From an uncultured Rickettsiales bacterium (GTDB lineage: Bacteria; Myxococcota_A; UBA796; UBA9615), in NCBI GenBank assembly GCA_964344575.1, contig CAYFOA010000011.1:4193-68192 (forward strand): a DNA stretch of 64,000 nucleotides, given 5' to 3'. This document shows, piece by piece, positions 4,812-58,142 of this stretch; positions within the stretch are counted from its first letter, which is position 1, and the number at the start of each line of letters is the position of its first letter. A program made the position numbers and the translations under genes. Below the pieces are notes generated by a model that ran no database searches, was not told where the DNA came from, and saw only the letters and a program-made list of their open reading frames with translations.

Positions 4812-5525
4812 CTACTGGCAGACCGGCACGAACACGGACAGGAGGCCCCCGCTCGGGTCGTAGTCGCACACGCCGCTCCAGCAGACGTCGTCGCGCAGGC
4901 AGGCCTGACCGTCGTCGAGCTTCGCCTGGCAGGTGCCCCAGACGGTCGAGCAGTACATCGCGTCGCCGCAGTCGTAGTCGCTGTCGCAGTCGTCGCCCTC
5001 CGCGGGCGCGGGCTCGACGGTCTCCTCGTCGATCTCGTCGTTCCCCGCGGCGTACGCCTCCTCGGCGGCCGCGTCGCACGCGTCGAGGCAGTCGTAGAAC
5101 TCCTCGAAGCCGGGGGCGTCGAGGAAGTCGTAGCCGGCCACGTACGCGTCCCAAAGGACCGACGCGAGGCAGGCTTCGACGGAGAAGCCGGCCAGCAGGT
5201 CGACGATGCTCGTGTTGGCCAGCCAGCCCGCGTTGACCCACTCGGCGAGGGCGCCCATCCCGATGCAGCCGAAGTAGTCGCCCGCGATGCCGAGGAACGC
5301 GATCGCCTGCTGCTTGTCGTACTCGGACTGGTCTTCGAGCGCCTGTTCGAAGCAGGCGTCGCGACAGTCCTCGCGGGCGTCTTCGATGGGGTCGTCCTCG
5401 ATGCTGTTCCAGTGGCTGTACTCGATGCCGTTGTCCGAGACCGGGTCGTAGTACGACGACGCGCTCGCGACCGAGGCGGTGAGGGTCAGGGCGGCCAGCA
5501 GGGCGAGGGTCTGGAAGTGCTTCAT
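4812..5525 (-). CDS. Hypothetical secreted protein (237 aa) with Cys-rich C-terminus
   Basis: Signal peptide MKHFQTLALLAALTLTASVASA. C-terminal segment DDCDSDYDCGDAMYCSTVWGTCQAKLDDGQACLRDDVCWSGVCDYD has a disulfide-rich pattern. Confidence 0.7.
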   Translation of the reverse strand: MKHFQTLALLAALTLTASVASASSYYDPVSDNGIEYSHWNSIEDDPIEDAREDCRDACFEQALEDQSEYDKQQAIAFLGIAGDYFGCIGMGALAEWVNAGWLANTSIVDLLAGFSVEACLASVLWDAYVAGYDFLDAPGFEEFYDCLDACDAAAEEAYAAGNDEIDEETVEPAPAEGDDCDSDYDCGDAMYCSTVWGTCQAKLDDGQACLRDDVCWSGVCDYDPSGGLLSVFVPVCQ

Positions 5526-5706
5526 GGCGGAGTCTCCAACGGCCGTTCGTTCGGCCTGTCCCCAGCGTGAGCAGCGCCCCGCTCGAGGCCCCCTGACGCG
5601 TCCTGAATCGAGGCGCGACGCCGGCCACCAGGGAGTCAGGGCGCTTCAGCGGGCTTCACGTTCGCCGCCGGGCACGGTCGAGGGAGCAACCCCCTGGAGA
5701 CCCGCC

Positions 5707-7815
5707 ATGCGCACCTTCCTCGCTTCCCTCCTCCTCCTCGCGGCCGCCCCCGCGACGGCCTCCGCCGAGACGTGGCCGTGCCTCGACGGCGGGGACGACG
5801 CCCTGGACGTCACCATCGTCCAGGCGGCCTCCCGCCGGTACGGCCGCAACGGCGACCTGCCGGAGTTCGGCGAGGTGCGAGACGCCCAGGCCTACGACAT
5901 CCACCTCGCCGCGGCGGTCGAGCCGCCCCGGGACCAGGTCCGCAACCTCGTGCTCTTCGCGGCCGGTCAGCAGGGGTGGGAGGCGCTGTCGCCGACCGGG
6001 TTGTCGAATCTCATGACCGGCCAGACGACGGGCTACAAGGCGCTCTGGTACGGCCGGGACCACGAGCGGAACGCCGGCATGCACGAGTGCAGCGTCTACG
6101 CCCGGCTCGTGCGCGCGTCGCAGGGCGGCCGCCTGGAGGGCTTCGACGTCCGCGACGACGGCGACACCTTCGTCGGGCTGGCGTTCGACACGGCGTTCTA
6201 CTTCGACGAGACCGACGAGCAGCGGGAGACCGCGATCGACGCTTGGTACACGTGGCTCACCGGCCACGCCGAGGCGGCGAACATCGACACGATCTACCTG
6301 GCCGGTGTCTCCCGCGGAGGCGCGCTCCTGCACCACCTCGGGCAGCGGTTCGCGGAGGACGGCGCGTACGACGAGGCCAAGATCGTAGTCGGCGGCGTCG
6401 ATGTCGTCTTCCAGCACGACGAAGGCGAGTTCTGCTCGGACGAGACGGAGATCGACAACCCCACCCTCGCGCACCACGAGTACCGGGCGTGGGCGTCGGC
6501 GGCCGGAGAGTGCTTCGACTTCAGCCGCGAGGGGCTCCGCGTCATGCAGCTCGTCGGCGGCCAGCAGGTCCTGCTGCTCAACGACCGCCACGCGTACGCG
6601 GTCCCCCTCGACGACCGCCGGGAGCTCCTCGGCTTCCACCAGCGCTGGGAGCCCTGGAAGCACAAGTTCTGGCAGAGCAGCCTCGACCTCGACGGCTTCG
6701 TCGAGGACATGGTCGATCCCCAGCTGAACTTCTTCGAGGCCGCCCTGTCCGAGGACGCGGACGACCGCTGGCGCATCGCGTTCGGCGCCGCCGACGGCCT
6801 CGACAACTTCACGATCGTGGCGCGCGAACAGGGCCCGGAGCGGCCCGCCGACCTGATCCTCGCCGACGCCGACGGAGACGGAGACACCGACCTGCTCCGC
6901 CTCGACGGCGCCGGCGGCATCGAGAAGTCGCGCTCGTACGCGGGCGACAGCTGGGGCGACTGGGACGCCTGGGCCGGCGCGCCCGCGGGCGCAGACGAGG
7001 CCTCCGACTTCGGCGTGGGGGACTTCGACGGCGACGGCACCGACGACCTCGTCGTGCGCATCGACGGCGCATGGTCCGTCCTGCACGGGCCCACGCGGGG
7101 CCTGTTCGCGCGGTGGCCCGCGACGACGACCGAAGACCTGACGTGGACGGCGGCGGACGGCCCCGAAGGCGGCCTGGATGAGGTCGCCATCGGAGACTTC
7201 GACGGCGACGGGCGCGACGACCTGCTCCACCTGGCGGGGTCCTCGTGGCTGCTCCACAGCGCCTCAGGCGATCGCGACGACCCGTTCGCGAGCAGCGGGG
7301 TCGAGGTCGGACAGACCACCGAGTCGGTGGCCTGGGGCGGCGAGCCGGGGTACGCGGGCTTCGTCGGCTGGGGTCGGGCCGACGTCCTCGTGGGCGACTT
7401 CGACGGCGACGGCTTCAGCGACGTCGTGCGGCCCGAGGCGGAAGCCGAGACGGAGGGCGTGGCCGACGAGGCCCCGATCGAGGGTACGGTGACCCTCACG
7501 ATCTGCGCGCTCGCGCTCGAAGACGGCGATCCCGCCGCGGCGTGCGGCGCGGTCGAAGCCGAGGACGCGTTCCGATCGCGCTACTCGGACTTCGACCTGG
7601 TCGATCGGCTCGCCGTCGGCGACACCGACGGCGACGGCGCCGACGACCTGCTGCTGCTCGACGACCAGCGGGTCTTCCGGCTGACGGCCGCCGCGGACTG
7701 GAGCCGCGAGGAGTGGCTCCCCCCCGGTCCCCACAGCTGGCGCGAGTTCATGGCGAACTACGGCATCGGCGACTTCGACCGCGACGGGACCGCCGACCTG
7801 TTCTTCGCGCGCTGA
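5707..7815 (+). CDS. Secreted alpha/beta-hydrolase-like domain (GxSxG) fused to FG-GAP/VCBS-type repeats
   Basis: The true start is an internal ATG at 5707 (MRTFLASLLLLAAAPATASA, signal peptide) within ORF 5479..7815. It has the GVSRG pentapeptide. Repeats include GDFDGDGTDDLVV, GDFDGDGRDDLLHL, GDFDGDGFSDVV, GDTDGDGADDLLLL and GDFDRDGTADLFF. Confidence 0.75.
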   Translation: MRTFLASLLLLAAAPATASAETWPCLDGGDDALDVTIVQAASRRYGRNGDLPEFGEVRDAQAYDIHLAAAVEPPRDQVRNLVLFAAGQQGWEALSPTGLSNLMTGQTTGYKALWYGRDHERNAGMHECSVYARLVRASQGGRLEGFDVRDDGDTFVGLAFDTAFYFDETDEQRETAIDAWYTWLTGHAEAANIDTIYLAGVSRGGALLHHLGQRFAEDGAYDEAKIVVGGVDVVFQHDEGEFCSDETEIDNPTLAHHEYRAWASAAGECFDFSREGLRVMQLVGGQQVLLLNDRHAYAVPLDDRRELLGFHQRWEPWKHKFWQSSLDLDGFVEDMVDPQLNFFEAALSEDADDRWRIAFGAADGLDNFTIVAREQGPERPADLILADADGDGDTDLLRLDGAGGIEKSRSYAGDSWGDWDAWAGAPAGADEASDFGVGDFDGDGTDDLVVRIDGAWSVLHGPTRGLFARWPATTTEDLTWTAADGPEGGLDEVAIGDFDGDGRDDLLHLAGSSWLLHSASGDRDDPFASSGVEVGQTTESVAWGGEPGYAGFVGWGRADVLVGDFDGDGFSDVVRPEAEAETEGVADEAPIEGTVTLTICALALEDGDPAAACGAVEAEDAFRSRYSDFDLVDRLAVGDTDGDGADDLLLLDDQRVFRLTAAADWSREEWLPPGPHSWREFMANYGIGDFDRDGTADLFFAR

Positions 7816-53151: not shown

Positions 53152-53649
53152 TCAGGGCCGGGAACTTGGACGGCAGTCCGAGCGCTGTCGCGGGGAGGGC
53201 ACAGTCCAGCGGCCACCTACCGGGGCGCTCCAGGCTCCCCCGCCGTCACGGACTCGAACGCGCCATTCGACCTCGTCCCCCTTCGGCCAGTCGCGACACA
53301 CCGGGAGCGTTACTGTCTCCCTCCGATCGAGGCTGACGTGCGGCGCGACCAGCGTCGTCCCCAGTGCTTCGACTTCGAACTCGGGTGAATCGAGGCGCTC
53401 CTTGCCCGGCTCTACATCAACGAGGAGCCGCACGGCGTATCCGAGGGCGACGCCGCGTCGAGGCTGACCACAGGTCGTGGCGGGATGACCTGGGTCGCAG
53501 AACTCGACCCCGTGAATCACGGTCGCCGTCGGCCGGGAGGATGTGGGTTCGCAGGCTTGCAGCAGCAGCGAGCCGACGAAGGCTACCGCCAACGCCCCGC
53601 CGAGGTGCCGCCCCGAGGGCGACCGAGGCTCGCCGACTGGGGTGGTCAA
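53152..53649 (-). CDS. Hypothetical small lipoprotein (165 aa), low confidence
   Basis: N-terminus ...GGALAVAFVGSLLLQACEP carries a lipobox. Composition is protein-like. It is convergent with the OMF gene. Confidence 0.4.
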   Translation of the reverse strand: MTTPVGEPRSPSGRHLGGALAVAFVGSLLLQACEPTSSRPTATVIHGVEFCDPGHPATTCGQPRRGVALGYAVRLLVDVEPGKERLDSPEFEVEALGTTLVAPHVSLDRRETVTLPVCRDWPKGDEVEWRVRVRDGGGAWSAPVGGRWTVPSPRQRSDCRPSSRP

Positions 53650-54350
53650 AGGTAGTTGAAGATGTCCCAGGGCCCTGGGCAGTCGGTATCACTTCTGGCG
53701 GGCATCCCGCTCTGGTAGCCCCATCCATCCGTTTGGTATGTGCAGTCGGGCGGAACGTACGAGTACCACTCTACGAGGTAGTCGCACAGGCAGACCGCAG
53801 TGAAGAACGGAAACCAGTCGATGTCCCAGTAGCAACCCTGCAGATGACGGTGCGTACCGCTCGGTGGACAGGGCACCGACGAGTCTTCTTCTACTTGTAC
53901 TTCTTCGTCTTCTTCATCTTCATCGTCATCGTCGGGCGCAGTGCCGTCGTCGTCATCGTCGTCATCGTCGTCGTCGTCATCATCGTCGTCGTCATCGGGC
54001 GCGGTGCCGTCGTCGTCATGGTCCGGTTCGTCGATCTCGACGGTGTCGGGGCCGGGGCTGTCGTCCACCAGCTCGCGTATGAGGGTCGCGACCGGACTCT
54101 CTCCGCCGTCGTCGTCGTCGGTTGCCACGACCGTTGTCCCGGCCCCAGGCGCCGTCATGCACACGCCCATCTCGGTGTCGCACCCGCAGCAGGTGCCGTC
54201 GTCCGAGCCCGAGGTCGGTGCACAGTCCGAGTCGGAGTCGCATTCCTGTCCAGCTGGGCAAGTCACGCCCTCGCAGGGATCGCCGCCTTCGCCTTCGCCA
54301 TCCGGCTCGACCCTACCCTCGCCTGGGCCGCCCTCCTCGCCCTCGGCGAC
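53646..54350 (-). CDS. Acidic poly-Asp, Cys/aromatic-rich protein; 5' end undetermined
   Basis: Reading frame of ORF 53646..55082. From ~54350 downward codon usage is A/T-rich at third positions, atypical for this genome. Contains CEGVTCPAGQECDSDSDC, a run of ~17 Asp, and the C-terminus CYWDIDWFPFFTAVCLCDYLVEWYSYVPPDCTYQTDGWGYQ. The upstream part of the ORF is Arg-rich and spurious. Confidence 0.35.
   Translation of the reverse strand, partial: VAEGEEGGPGEGRVEPDGEGEGGDPCEGVTCPAGQECDSDSDCAPTSGSDDGTCCGCDTEMGVCMTAPGAGTTVVATDDDDGGESPVATLIRELVDDSPGPDTVEIDEPDHDDDGTAPDDDDDDDDDDDDDDDDDGTAPDDDDEDEEDEEVQVEEDSSVPCPPSGTHRHLQGCYWDIDWFPFFTAVCLCDYLVEWYSYVPPDCTYQTDGWGYQSGMPARSDTDCPGPWDIFNYL
53885..54005 (-). 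repeat. GAC/GAT trinucleotide run encoding poly-Asp (~17 D plus flanking D/E)
   Basis: gtcatcgtcgtcatcgtcgtcgtcgtcatcatcgtcgtcgtcatc on the plus strand. Confidence 0.9.
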
Positions 54351-54646
54351 CGAGAAGTCGGGTGGGACCTGGGGACCGAAGAACCAGGTCGGCCAGCTCG
54401 GGGATCGCGCTGCGATCGACGGGGACGCGCAGGTGCACGGCCCCGACGCCGGCTTCCACCAAGCCCTCCGCGCCACGCCCCCTCGGAACCACTCGGGCAA
54501 CGGCTGTTCTGCGCCGCGCCTCGACCGGCAGGAACACGAACCGCCGCGCTCACCCTTGCAGGAGCAGCTTCGACCGGAGCAGGAGCGATGCCCCTTCGTG
54601 GAGCGGACCCGAGCGCTGACTCGATCGAGGCGGCGCTCCCGCCAGC

Positions 54647-55033
54647 TCAGAGCGTGACGATCTGCCACCGGGCGCTCGCGCGGCACGCGACGGGCGTCGT
54701 CCCCGAGTTCCGGTGGATGTGCCAACCGAACCGTATGAGGCGCTTGCTGCTCGTGTCGCTGCTGGCGTCCGAGTAGGCGCCCTGGTCCTGGTAGCCGGCA
54801 GCGTTCGTCGCGGTGCCGACCGAGGTCGAGCTGCCCGGGTTGTCCGCGAAGTCCGCGACCTGGTAGGCCGGGACGACGTCGAGGTTCCCGATGACTTCCT
54901 CGATCTCGAAGGCAGCGCGGACCTTCTCGATGTTGGCCGCGCTCATCCACGGCGTCGCCGAGATGAAGATGTCGGTTGTGTCGTTCTCGGTCATCAGGGT
55001 GGTCGGTGGTGCGTAGACCGAACGAGTTCCCAT
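54647..55033 (-). CDS. Hypothetical protein (128 aa) of unknown family, preceded by a consensus Shine-Dalgarno site
   Basis: MGTRSVYAPPTTLMTENDTTDIFISATPWMSAANIEKVRAAFEIEEVIGNL... Composition is balanced and non-GC-biased. GAAGGAGG lies 8 nt upstream of the ATG. Local GC is lower than the genome average. Confidence 0.55.
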   Translation of the reverse strand: MGTRSVYAPPTTLMTENDTTDIFISATPWMSAANIEKVRAAFEIEEVIGNLDVVPAYQVADFADNPGSSTSVGTATNAAGYQDQGAYSDASSDTSSKRLIRFGWHIHRNSGTTPVACRASARWQIVTL

Positions 55034-55041
55034 GGGGATCC

Positions 55042-55049
55042 CCTCCTTC
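55042..55049 (-). promoter_or_regulatory. Consensus Shine-Dalgarno GAAGGAGG 8 nt upstream of the ATG of ORF 54647..55033
   Basis: Plus strand reads ccctccttc. Confidence 0.6.
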
Positions 55050-55086: not shown

Positions 55087-55104
55087 AGAGAGAGAGAGAG
55101 AGAG
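55087..55104. repeat. (AG)9 dinucleotide microsatellite in intergenic region, followed by a 7-bp stem hairpin at 55140-55156
   Basis: cagagagagagagagagagagc, then ccttccg-tgg-cggaagg. Confidence 0.9.
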
Positions 55105-55197: not shown

Positions 55198-55773
55198 GTG
55201 AGTTCTCGTGCCACGAAGCGAGCGACGTACGAGGATCTCCTCGCGCTCCCCGTGCACGTGGTCGGAGAGCTCATCGGGGGCGTCCTGGAGGTCTCGCCGC
55301 GCCCCGCTCCGCCTCACGCGGTCGCCCACTCGGGCCTCAGTGGCCAGCTGACGCCGCCCTTCAGCTGGGGGCGCGGCGGACCCGGCGGCTGGTGGATCCT
55401 CACCGAGCCGGAGCTTCACCTGGGCTCGGACGTCCTCGTGCCCGACCTCGGAGGTTGGCGACGGGACCGCATGGAGGAGATGCCCGAGACGGCGTACTTC
55501 GAGCTGCCGCCGGACTGGGTCTGCGAGATCGTCTCGCCCGCGACGGCTCGAGTCGATCGGGTGCTCAAGCTGCCGGTCTACGCGAGCGCCGGCGTCGCCT
55601 GGGCATGGCTCGTCGATCCGATCGCCCGATCCCTGGAGGTCTTCCGCGGAGCCGACCGGACCTGGGTGCTGCACTCCACGCACTCCGGCGACGACATCGT
55701 GCGCGCTGAACCCTTCGCCGCGGTCGAGCTCGAGCTGTCGCTGGTCTGGGGGGAGCTGCGGGGGGCGGGATAG
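55198..55773 (+). CDS. Uma2-family (DUF820) PD-(D/E)xK putative endonuclease
   Basis: YFELPPDWVCEIVSPAT resembles the Uma2 signature (PDLVVEVLSPS). 191 aa. GTG start. Confidence 0.8.
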   Translation: MSSRATKRATYEDLLALPVHVVGELIGGVLEVSPRPAPPHAVAHSGLSGQLTPPFSWGRGGPGGWWILTEPELHLGSDVLVPDLGGWRRDRMEEMPETAYFELPPDWVCEIVSPATARVDRVLKLPVYASAGVAWAWLVDPIARSLEVFRGADRTWVLHSTHSGDDIVRAEPFAAVELELSLVWGELRGAG

Positions 55774-55847
55774 AAGGTCCTCCTGATGCCGGCGGTAGGG
55801 AGGCAAAGCCAGGTTGCATTGTGCAACCCATCCGATAGAATTGCTTC

Positions 55848-56189
55848 ATGTCCACCGCCGTCAAGCTGTCCTCCGAGCTGGTCGAGGCTGCGCGCGCCGA
55901 GGCTGAGCTGTACTCGCGGTCGATGACGCAGCAGATCGAGCACTGGGCTCGTGTCGGGCGCGCCATCGAGCGGTCGGGGGCCGTCGATCCCGAGCGGGTG
56001 CGCGCGGCGCTGCGGGCGGAGCTGCACTTCGACGAGCTGGGGACCGAGGAGCGGATGGCCGTGCTGGGTGAGCTGGAGCGGGCGGTCCTGAAGCCGAAGG
56101 GGGACCGCGCCCTGGCCCGGGAGCTCGCCGCCGGCGGTGAGACGCTGGTGGGGGCCGGCGCCGACGGCGAGCTGTTCGAGGTGCCGTGA
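55848..56189 (+). CDS. ParD-like antitoxin (partner of zeta-toxin-like ATPase)
   Basis: 113 aa, helical and acidic. The N-terminus has the pattern MSTAVKLSSELVEAARAEAELYSRSMTQQIEHWARVGRAIE. The stop overlaps the downstream GTG start (GTGA). Confidence 0.7.
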   Translation: MSTAVKLSSELVEAARAEAELYSRSMTQQIEHWARVGRAIERSGAVDPERVRAALRAELHFDELGTEERMAVLGELERAVLKPKGDRALARELAAGGETLVGAGADGELFEVP

Positions 56190-56779
56190 CCGCCGAGCCG
56201 CCGCTCCTGTGGCTGCTGATCGGACCGAACGGGGCGGGGAAGAGCACCTACTACCGGACGCGCATCGAGCCTCGTCTGGGGGTCGAGTTCGTCAACGCCG
56301 ACGTCATCGCCGCCGCCGAGTGGCCGGACGCCGGTCCCGAGGCCGCCTACGAGGCCGGACGGCGGGCGGCCGAGCGGCGCCGGCTGCTGATCGCCTCGCG
56401 GGAGTCGTTCGTCACCGAGACGGTGTTCTCCCATCCGTCGAAGCTCGATCTCGTCCAGGCCTCGCTCGACGCCGGCTACGAGCTGTGGGTCACGTTCGTC
56501 TGCGTCCAGACGCCCGAGCTGGCCGTCGCCCGCGTCGCACACCGTGTCCGCCGCGGCGGGCACGACGTCCCTCGCGACAAGATCGAGCAGCGGTTCGCCC
56601 GGATGACCGAGCAAGCCAAGATCGCGGTCCGGCGGGCGCGGCGGGCGTTCATCGTCGACAACAGCGACCCCCGCCGGCCGCTGCGGGACGTGATGACGTT
56701 CGAGCGAGGCCAGCTGACCTGGCGAGCAGACGACCTGCCGGCGTGGTGTTGCGCCCTGTTCGGAGGGGCTCTGGACTGA
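56186..56779 (+). CDS. Zeta-toxin-family P-loop kinase-like toxin
   Basis: Walker A LLIGPNGAGKSTY. Size ~197 aa. It follows a ParD-like antitoxin in the canonical gene order. Confidence 0.8.
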   Translation: MTAEPPLLWLLIGPNGAGKSTYYRTRIEPRLGVEFVNADVIAAAEWPDAGPEAAYEAGRRAAERRRLLIASRESFVTETVFSHPSKLDLVQASLDAGYELWVTFVCVQTPELAVARVAHRVRRGGHDVPRDKIEQRFARMTEQAKIAVRRARRAFIVDNSDPRRPLRDVMTFERGQLTWRADDLPAWCCALFGGALD

Positions 56780-57127: not shown

Positions 57128-57661
57128 TCAGGACTCCTCGAGGATCTCCTCGAGTGCGTACCAGGTCTTCTGCGGGATGCGCTCCCGGTCGAAGTAGCGG
57201 AGCATGATCTCGACGGCGTCTTCGTACCGCTCGACGTTGAGCGCGCGGAGGAGGAAGCGGACGTCTTCTTCGTCGCGGAAGCCCTCGCCGATACGCATGG
57301 CGGCGCACTTCAGGGCCAGCAGGTACTCCGGTTGGGCGACGAAGACCGCGAGGTGGGGGAGGTCGAGGAAGGGGTCGAACTCGCCGCGCGCGCTGAGGAA
57401 GCCCTTCACGCCGTCGTTCAGCCAGTCCTCGCGCACGTCCGCTCGGAGGGCGACCCGCGCGGCCGCCCGACGGAGCTCGGCGGTCGGCCGGAACAGCGCG
57501 TCCACGTCCCGGGTGGACTCGCGGGCCTCGAAGACGAGGCACATCACGGCGCCGCCGACCAGGTAGAGCTCGCCCCGGATCCCCTCGCGCCCCAGCTCCT
57601 CGTCGAGGAGGTCGAACAGACGCCGGATGTCCTCGGCCGTCAGCTCCAGGCGGTCAGGCAC
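57128..57661 (-). CDS. Nucleotidyltransferase-fold protein (MNT/AbiEii-like minimal NTase)
   Basis: LYLVGGAVMCLVFEARESTRDVDALF fits the hG[GS]...DhD NTase signature. It overlaps the upstream RHH-protein gene by 8 nt. Confidence 0.7.
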   Translation of the reverse strand: MPDRLELTAEDIRRLFDLLDEELGREGIRGELYLVGGAVMCLVFEARESTRDVDALFRPTAELRRAAARVALRADVREDWLNDGVKGFLSARGEFDPFLDLPHLAVFVAQPEYLLALKCAAMRIGEGFRDEEDVRFLLRALNVERYEDAVEIMLRYFDRERIPQKTWYALEEILEES

Positions 57662-58142
57662 GGTCGCCCACCGCCGCGTCGATGAACAGGTTCCTCCGCC
57701 GGAACGCCACTGGGGCGGACACCAGGAGGTGCTCCCGGAGCCGCCGCAGTCGGGTGCCGAACCAGGGGTGAGGGAGCGGGGGCACGCGAGCCGCCCAGGC
57801 GGGCGGCGGGCAGCCGAGGCGGGCGGCCGTCATCTCGACCAGCGCCGCGACGTAGTTGCGCTCCCGGAGCGGCAGGAAGTCGACCTCGAGGCCGTCGACC
57901 GCGAGCGGGAAGTCGATCGCCGCGAGCCCCTGCAGCAGCTCGATGATCTCGGCCCAGGCCGCCTGCGACGAGCCCCCCGTGACGTGCCCCATCAGCGCCG
58001 CCAGCCGCCTCCGGGGCTCGGGGAGGGCGCGCGCGAGGATCCACTCGGACATCCCCATCCCCGCCCGCTCCGAAGCGGTCCGGATCGCCCGCTTCTCGGC
58101 CTCGGTGACCCTCAGTTGGAGTTGGTGCGTACGCGTCGCCAT
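57654..58142 (-). CDS. Ribbon-helix-helix DNA-binding protein with C-terminal extension (possible HEPN-like Rx4H)
   Basis: N-terminus MATRTHQLQLRVTEAEKRAIRTASERAGMGMSEWILARAL has an RHH/CopG-like pattern. The C-terminus contains RRLREH. Confidence 0.6.
   Translation of the reverse strand: MATRTHQLQLRVTEAEKRAIRTASERAGMGMSEWILARALPEPRRRLAALMGHVTGGSSQAAWAEIIELLQGLAAIDFPLAVDGLEVDFLPLRERNYVAALVEMTAARLGCPPPAWAARVPPLPHPWFGTRLRRLREHLLVSAPVAFRRRNLFIDAAVGDRA

Follow-up and report, generated by a model that had tools for sequence, protein, structure and literature searches.

Polymorphic toxin cassettes of the adaptor-effector-immunity type (Zhang et al. 2012, PMC3482391), for example those with the Eag or Tap adaptors of the type VI secretion system (T6SS), bring together a small, conserved protein encoded upstream, a partner whose N-terminal element is conserved and whose C-terminus can be swapped, and a variable envelope-located protein encoded directly downstream. 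Here we describe a locus that shares these features, in a 64,000-nucleotide stretch of contig CAYFOA010000011.1 from an uncultured Rickettsiales bacterium (assembly GCA_964344575.1); this whole stretch is referred to as the window, and all coordinates are positions within it. The locus is a three-gene cassette on the minus strand, running from 55033 to 53152, and its annotation can now be fixed as genes of 128, ~335 and 165 amino acids (aa), encoding a jelly-roll protein from open reading frame ORF128, an acidic partner protein and a predicted lipoprotein. An earlier description made from the letters of the DNA (the sequence-only reading) had recognised two genes only, overlooking the lipoprotein gene and the full extent of the second gene. 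We conclude that ORF128 and the acidic gene form a real conserved cassette, in which the acidic gene is the local version of a fast-evolving partner.

A jelly-roll protein and its CxC-tagged partner

ORF128 (54647–55033, minus strand) encodes a 128-aa single jelly-roll protein that has no signal peptide. Its ATG at 55033 is preceded, at a distance of 8 nucleotides, by a Shine-Dalgarno site (GAAGGAGG, 55042–55049, as read from the sequence), and both the GAAGGAGG-N8-ATG start and the protein sequence quoted in the sequence-only reading were confirmed. The GC content at third codon positions (GC3) is 0.91 overall and 0.85–0.97 along the gene, matching neighbouring genes (0.89–0.99), and the coding signal is strong. 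The earlier statement that ORF128 matches no family is correct for curated libraries, since Pfam, NCBIfam, PHROGs and PADLOC contain no match, but ORF128 does belong to a large uncurated family. A word-indexed protein search returned only ORF128 itself, a single-protein genome scan gave no match, a metagenome scan led to one locus and a viral scan (IMG/VR) found no relative. An exhaustive HMMER search against 1.84 billion cluster representatives, however, recovered 218 clusters at E ≤ 1e-3 and 52 at E ≤ 1e-10, giving a family size of at least 218 clusters (50% identity). Most homologues are 125–132 aa long and align end to end, over residues ~3–127, while tandem duplications of the jelly-roll domain (240–275 aa) make up 24 of the best 150 clusters; the window itself holds only one copy. 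An alignment of 77 family sequences revealed conserved residues F23, R39, E43, R101 and G103 together with a '..L.RFG' motif, a pattern to which ORF128 conforms, its own RFG motif reading KRLIRFGW. A Pfam scan of these 77 members gave no match and literature searches found no description of an ORF128-like family.

An AlphaFold2 model of ORF128 built from the family alignment is an all-beta jelly-roll of very high confidence (predicted local distance difference test score, pLDDT, 96.9; predicted template modelling score, pTM, 0.89). When this model was searched against PDB and BFVD with Foldseek, birnavirus VP2 was the top structural match, with template modelling (TM) scores of 0.60–0.71; further structural neighbours were phage cement proteins, tail-fibre tips, XepA and viral capsid proteins. 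Since sequence identity to these neighbours is 6–15%, the likeness to VP2 is one of fold and homology is not demonstrated. A signal-peptide-like N-terminus was seen in only 1 of 108 single-domain family members, which indicates that the family lacks signal peptides. Cysteine is also irregular, with a C-terminal Cys in 24 of the 108 members and none at all in 30. ORF128 is thus a confidently folded small jelly-roll protein of a widespread, uncurated family.

To ask what accompanies this family, we rely on 14 jelly-roll genes, the window copy included, that were read in the DNA around ORF128 homologues. In 12 of the 14 cases, the gene directly downstream encodes a protein tagged with Cys-X-Cys (CxC) repeats; these are the window cassette and those at loci L010 (twice), L014, L015, L016, L020, L021, L025, L026, L027 and L029. 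The partner gene lies on the same strand, abutting or overlapping the jelly-roll stop codon, and its CxC units fall within the first 5–100 residues. The tags read GCTSGCSCGG..GCSCVQC in L014, GGCGCDGGCG in L016, GACGCSGCGCGSG in L020, DCSGQPSKCACEGC in L021, DCGCGGGCGGGCGDTCAGKGCGCG in L025, ACGCDSAPCECS..GCDCELGGCDC in L026, HCGCGC..CAKGCG in L027 and SCGQDLSCSCVGC in L029, while L010 has the motif in each of its two cassettes and L015 carries VCSCPGKRGKAGRCGC before an insertion sequence (IS) interrupts the gene. Considering that the background for CxC repeats in the loci read is 0.8% of 120-aa windows, the count before L029 was included, 11 of 13, corresponds to P ~4e-22.

A direct link between the two genes comes from P0106, a 638-aa protein encoded on an ENA contig of 3015 base pairs (bp), which contains a CxC segment, a jelly-roll domain and a zincin-like HExxH domain in one chain. 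The HExxH part of P0106 shares 41% identity with the stand-alone L010 partner (E 1e-76) and, judged from these sequences, P0106 is a Rosetta-stone link between jelly-roll and partner. Stop/start overlaps of the form NTGA follow the jelly-roll gene in the window (CTGA), L014 (ATGA) and L029 (GTGA), and partner GC3 is lower than jelly-roll GC3 in the window and in 10 of 10 other pairs. Taken together, adjacency, the fused protein, the geometry of translational coupling and the asymmetry in expression argue that the jelly-roll and the CxC-tagged protein act together, and we regard the two as very probably a genuine functionally linked pair. The sequence-only reading had suggested a novel two-protein system and had proposed co-occurrence of homologues as a test. 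The outcome was positive for the type of pair (12 of 14, and the fused P0106), but the acidic and aromatic portion of the window protein itself has no homologue.

Several of the loci read show variations on this arrangement. In L010, a second, diverged jelly-roll and CxC/HExxH cassette (7894–7403, minus strand) lies tail-to-tail with the first, and its jelly-roll gene has an in-frame stop. In L015 (533–2633), from a metagenome-assembled genome (MAG) of Phycisphaerae, insertion of a DDE_Tnp_1 transposase cuts the partner short after the CxC motif. In L022 (5443–9679), the genes after a 258-aa duplicated jelly-roll encode, in place of a CxC partner, a protein of 247 aa, an enzyme of the radical SAM/SPASM type and an HEVAH protein, an arrangement that may be relevant to how double jelly-rolls evolved or to the modification of Cys. 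In L028, a small hydrophobic membrane-like reading frame (1163–1620) separates the jelly-roll gene from an HExxH partner that has no clear CxC tag. Upstream of the jelly-roll gene, the two related MAG loci L026 (3368–4237) and L027 (3483–4427) carry a gene for a ParA/MinD-like ATPase with a conserved C-terminal '(A/P)GWDD(D/G)A'.

The partner gene and the downstream lipoprotein gene

The acidic reading frame is uninterrupted on the minus strand from 55184 to 53646. That it is open is by itself weak support for a gene, given that no stop interrupts three of the six frames across the GAC/GTC repeat, and the coding status of the frame therefore rests on comparative evidence. The N-terminal CxC-repeat motif CSGRSCSCKGERGGSCSC (54528–54581, minus strand) is the signature common to the partners of the family, a further CTC follows ~25 codons downstream, and only three double-CxC sites, CSGRSCSCKGERGGSCSC being one of them, occur in all six frames of the 64-kb window. 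Since the CxC repeats lie at 54581–54528, the acidic gene begins at the ORF128 stop. The sequence-only reading had held the 5' end of the second gene to be unfixable. With the CTG at 54650 (the CTGA overlap with the ORF128 stop), the partner gene spans 53646–54650 and encodes ~334 aa; the in-frame GTG codons at 54668 and 54686, which are the canonical options, extend the range to ~346 aa, while a start at TTG 54500 or GTG 54476 would lose the first CxC cluster. Prodigal calls only 54128–53646 (160 aa), in four assemblies, so that, from the position of the tag, the second gene appears to be about twice its called length (~335 rather than 160 aa). We think it probable that the window partner is translated over ~335 aa. 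A frameshift (–1) fusion of ORF128 with the acidic frame would fit the geometry, and GC3 switches frame near 54650, but it was rejected because the homologues end where ORF128 ends.

The partner is a modular protein with an isoelectric point (pI) of 4.05 and a Cys content of 6.2%. The Cys module (54275–54159), the Asp run (53996–53946) and the aromatic, Cys-rich C-terminus (53870–53649) noticed in the sequence-only reading are all present in the same-strand frame. The second Cys module, CEGVTCPAGQECDSDSDCAPTSGSDDGTCCGCDTEMGVC (54159–54275), resembles 'DSDCPECSASAGADCGCGCTDGSE' of L010 by eye, a likeness that is not significant by BLASTP. It is followed by an acidic low-complexity linker (53883–54119) that contains a run of exactly 17 consecutive Asp residues (D17, 53946–53996) and ~2 copies of a tandem repeat with a period of 63 bp. 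The protein ends in an orphan 74-aa module (53649–53870) with 7 Cys, 6 Trp and 6 Tyr and a GC3 of 0.71; the sequence CYWDIDWFPFF comes after the Asp17 run. Codon usage of the acidic frame was rightly called atypical: GC3 is 0.76, compared with 0.91 for ORF128 and 0.89–0.99 for eight neighbouring genes, and GAT accounts for 25% of its Asp codons against 1.6% in host genes. The GC content, 72.9% for the window, falls to 0.60 at 53600–54000, over the payload. Neither the acidic protein nor its C-terminus retrieved anything in word-indexed searches, not even itself, and sequence searches of PDB with the partner and with the lipoprotein gave no significant match. Structure prediction, which had been proposed for both proteins, gave the pLDDT 96.9 jelly-roll for ORF128; the single-sequence AlphaFold2 model of the partner is uninformative (pLDDT 45).

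Downstream of the tag, the partners differ widely. The C-terminal parts of the L010a, L010b, L021, L026, L027 and L028 partners share a weakly conserved region with an 'ENLD.V' motif and an HExxH sequence, and a 'CAL..MA.TI.HExxH' motif is kept in five aligned relatives. Against Pfam, these HExxH partners reach only weak matches (E ~0.1) to Peptidase_M48 and Reprolysin, and their alignment found no significant match in PDB. The L029 partner ends in beta-propeller-like repeats, whereas the C-termini of the window, L016, L020 and L025 partners are unrelated to the HExxH and propeller types and to one another; no HExxH motif occurs in the window partner. The extent of divergence is illustrated by L026 and L027, where the jelly-rolls are 81% identical and the partners ~25%. 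In the L026 partner (5488–6861), a run of 22 Gly residues precedes a Trp-rich segment, HWDPWQWGVFWWLVG, which parallels the passage from Asp17 to CYWDIDWFPFF in the window. A homopolymer linker followed by an aromatic tail may be a recurrent design in these partners.

The third gene (53152–53649, minus strand) encodes a predicted lipoprotein of 165 aa with a signal peptide and an LLLQAC lipobox. The gene starts with a TTG that shares bases with the TGA of the partner (TTGA), so that the overlaps CTGA and TTGA connect the three window genes, and its GC3 of 0.76 equals that of the partner. In most of the loci read, the gene downstream of the partner likewise encodes a variable envelope protein, which is a lipoprotein in L021 (LIIVAC), L020 (ALSGC), L027 (LTSSAC) and L010 (LTLGC) and a membrane protein in L025 and L016. 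None of these downstream proteins resembles another in sequence. The 165-aa lipoprotein is a candidate third component, possibly immunity-like.

The cassette is flanked by a convergent RND/TolC operon on one side and by divergent Uma2, ParD-like/zeta-like and NikA-like genes on the other. The flanks at 55252–56779 and 57128–58142, which encode Uma2, a ParD-like antitoxin with an overlapping zeta-like/AAA_33 kinase, and a NikA-like protein with a 177-aa gene, are a cluster of toxin-antitoxin-type modules, as the sequence-only reading had indicated. The ParD-like and AAA_33/zeta-like genes (55848–56779) are on the strand opposite to the cassette, and the idea that the cassette is part of this neighbouring type II toxin-antitoxin pair was rejected, the relation being one of adjacency only. 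Among the relatives, L019 lies beside toxin-antitoxin genes, L015 and L008 beside IS or integrase genes, and L014, L021 and L029 beside ordinary genes for metabolism and transport; none of the relative loci has a prophage context. The proposal that the pair is cargo of a mobile element is not obvious from this mixture of ordinary chromosomal contexts and toxin-antitoxin or IS neighbourhoods.

Scans for promoters and terminators found nothing, and neither strand of the acidic-gene region contains an Rfam, tRNA or Pfam feature. A reading as an RNA element was rejected, since the sole Rfam match, to P35, is below threshold and lies elsewhere, and no tRNA is present; a palindrome after the ORF128 stop folds no better than shuffled sequences (z +0.74) and was likewise rejected as an RNA structure. 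A perfect (AG)9 repeat at 55087–55104, (CT)9 on the coding strand, lies ~40 nucleotides upstream of the ORF128 Shine-Dalgarno site and could be a slippage-prone element in the promoter or leader of the gene. The region recurs, at ≥99.8% identity to the window, in several assemblies of ENA project PRJEB17505. Three independent assemblies (L002, L005 and L006) end inside the Asp-codon repeat (53880–54010), where L006 also shows GAT/GAC differences, which suggests repeat heterogeneity or an assembly limit. Neither partner nor lipoprotein is present in the NCBI-derived protein set (NCBI contig copy, 76,988 bp), and ~1.5 kb (53152–54646) is effectively unannotated in public data.

A proposed carrier, payload and envelope protein, and the alternatives

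Our preferred reading of the whole locus, a jelly-roll carrier with a CxC-docked polymorphic payload and an immunity-like envelope protein, is tentative, and we place it somewhat short of an even chance. ORF128 would be a well-expressed cytoplasmic single jelly-roll protein, and probably an oligomeric one; the viral and TNF-like jelly-rolls that it resembles in structure form trimers or pentamers. The partner would be a translationally coupled modular protein of low expression, in which the N-terminal CxC repeats are the conserved element and the C-terminal payload is swapped or diverges fast between genomes. In the window, this payload would be the orphan aromatic Cys-rich module after its Asp-rich linker, and in many relatives a zincin-like HExxH domain. 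The CxC repeats, probably through a bound metal, would dock the partner onto the jelly-roll oligomer, which would thereby serve as conserved carrier or adaptor of a polymorphic effector, while the variable downstream lipoprotein may act as the cognate protective (immunity-like) protein or as a receptor. Complex formation, metal binding, the effector/immunity role and any export route are all points that we infer, and the effector/immunity role in particular we consider possible rather than probable.

Several observations weigh against this reading. In none of the components was a secretion signal or a known trafficking or toxin domain found, no secretion-system genes adjoin the cassettes in the loci read, and a beta-propeller payload (L029) is atypical for a toxin. 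The suggestion in the sequence-only reading that the acidic protein is a secreted effector is unproven, neither ORF128 nor the partner having a signal peptide. Two loci, L022 and L028, have no adjoining CxC partner, and the 14 genes are a sample rather than a census of the family. The window partner lacks a canonical start codon with a Shine-Dalgarno site, its acidic and aromatic payload has no homologue or family in any search made, and its first 180 codons have a higher GC content at second than at first codon positions (GC2 > GC1), resembling out-of-frame sequence. The last feature can be ascribed to a composition rich in Cys, Ser, Gly and Arg, and L014 behaves likewise. Finally, since a C-terminal Cys is present in so few jelly-rolls and many have no Cys at all (24 and 30 of 108, as given above), a disulfide from the jelly-roll C-terminus to the CxC tag cannot be general, and this mode of attachment was rejected.

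The missing start signal, together with a partner GC3 of 0.71–0.80, the absence of HExxH, a payload that stands alone, and the 63-bp-period tandem repeat and assembly breaks in the Asp run, raises the possibility that the window partner is a decaying or non-functional copy, which has lost its start (CTG for ATG or GTG) and its catalytic domain and is drifting with an expanding Asp-codon repeat beside an intact jelly-roll gene. Decay is indeed seen in relatives, in the IS truncation of L015 and the in-frame stop of the second L010 jelly-roll. We nevertheless judge it unlikely here: ~335 codons stay open through a segment of 58–61% GC, the Cys and aromatic residues of the last 74 aa look like those of a folded module with disulfides or bound metal, the partner and lipoprotein genes still overlap at TTGA, the same sequence is found in independent assemblies, and a low GC3 marks the partners in all 10 other loci as well, some of which are clearly intact. 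A more radical view, that the acidic frame is no gene and is open by chance or lies antisense to some other feature, draws on the three open frames across the GAC/GTC repeat, on the absence of the acidic gene from the NCBI-derived set and on a plus-strand frame (53941–54657) whose GC1/GC2/GC3 pattern is plausible at 54300–54650. This is most improbable, given that the CxC signature falls in exactly the acidic frame and at the expected position, that neither strand holds a competing Rfam, tRNA or Pfam feature, that Prodigal calls the 3' part in four assemblies and that the stop of the acidic gene overlaps the start of the next. A plus-strand or other-frame gene at 54130–54650 was considered separately and rejected, no frame having a family match and the CxC repeats favouring the minus frame.

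Alternatively, the pair may be real but work differently. The jelly-roll could self-assemble into a shell, fibre or spike, with CxC as a targeting or anchoring peptide for variable cargo enzymes (zincin, propeller and others), comparable to the cargo peptides of encapsulins, and no antagonistic role. A short conserved terminal tag on otherwise unrelated proteins beside a conserved small structural gene is what such a scaffold would show, as are the fused P0106, tandem jelly-roll duplications in 24 of the best 150 clusters and the capsid and cement proteins among the closest folds; moreover, the host-optimal codons and perfect Shine-Dalgarno site of the jelly-roll gene, both lacking in the partner gene, suggest many jelly-roll copies per partner. 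However, the best match, as inferred from VP2 fragments in BFVD, seems closer to the projecting (P) domain of VP2 and to TNF-like trimers than to a shell-forming tangential jelly-roll, and the variable downstream lipoprotein is left unexplained, so we regard a scaffold with cargo as quite unlikely. The cement proteins, tail-fibre tips, XepA and viral capsid proteins among the structural neighbours also bring to mind a phage or virus structural remnant, which would give ORF128 the role of a cement, decoration or tail-fibre-tip protein and the partner that of a fibre or spike. With no PHROG match for any component or relative, no relative in IMG/VR, and chromosomal neighbours in nine loci (ABC transporter, RND/TolC, acyl carrier protein synthase, toxin-antitoxin pairs) that include no capsid, terminase or portal genes, the chance of this is very small. 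Binding of metals and minerals is classically associated with CxC repeats and long acidic runs. The partner has both, along with its low pI and high Cys content, and could therefore handle metal, its CxC clusters being metallothionein-like, Asp17 binding cations or mineral and the jelly-roll acting as an accessory. We hold this to be very unlikely, since the family does not keep the acidic run (L026 shows Gly22 in its place, and most partners have no such run), the payloads of relatives are enzymes or propellers, and no metallothionein family match was obtained.

Comparison with known systems

Whatever the function, at least 218 clusters of very confidently folded jelly-rolls have no entry in Pfam, NCBIfam, PHROGs, PADLOC or PDB, and their partner genes are so poorly recognised that the window copy is missing from the protein collections searched. 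A conserved short CxC tag on unrelated proteins beside a conserved scaffold gene amounts to a testable protein-targeting rule, one that could reveal a new bacterial way to load, display or deliver variable effectors. In its fullest form, the carrier reading would describe an undescribed bacterial system in which a capsid-spike-like or TNF-like jelly-roll oligomer captures hypervariable proteins through a metal-bound CxC tag for display, delivery or sequestration, together with envelope lipoproteins that match them. We consider this extended form doubtful. If true, capture of hypervariable proteins by a jelly-roll would be a new protein-targeting principle, and the resulting polymorphic effector or cargo systems would form a class of their own, unrelated by homology to the secretion adaptors, compartment shells and defence systems known so far. 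The ORF128 family also offers a cellular jelly-roll relative for the debate on the origins of capsid proteins.

Compared to birnavirus VP2 and to TNF/C1q-like trimeric jelly-rolls, such as the N-terminal lectin of BC2L-C, ORF128 is a stand-alone bacterial protein without capsid base or shell domains, and its sequence identity to them is 6–10%. The endospore appendages of Bacillus (Ena; DUF3992, with Cys-mediated tip and anchor proteins) differ in that ORF128 has neither a DUF3992 match nor an N-terminal Cys connector, its first strand beginning at residue 3; 30 of the 108 family members have no Cys, and the organisms are Gram-negative-type MAGs. Phage cement and decoration proteins and the PBSX proteins XepA/YomS are set apart by the cassette's lack of a sequence-family match or phage context and by a different partner gene. 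With encapsulins and their cargo, the locus shares the logic of a conserved structural gene and adjoining variable cargo with a short conserved terminal tag and occasional fusions. The encapsulin shell, however, has the HK97 fold and not a jelly-roll, the tags are unrelated, and there is no evidence of a closed shell here.

The polymorphic toxin cassettes introduced above differ as well. In the present cassette, Pfam, NCBIfam and PADLOC recognise no toxin domain, and there is no known trafficking domain or secretion linkage; the putative adaptor is a jelly-roll and does not have the DUF1795, DUF4123 or DUF2169 fold, the partner has a short N-terminal CxC repeat in place of a folded PAAR, LXG or Rhs module, and one payload is a beta-propeller. 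The likeness nevertheless extends beyond gene order to the conserved N-terminal element and swappable C-termini of the partner, some of them with HExxH (81% versus ~25% identity for jelly-rolls and partners of L026 and L027), to the lower GC3 of the variable genes and to variable regions near toxin-antitoxin and IS genes. Although we do not claim membership, the cassette most resembles, among the systems compared, the adaptor-effector-immunity cassettes of polymorphic toxins, and a role of that kind is our best functional guess.

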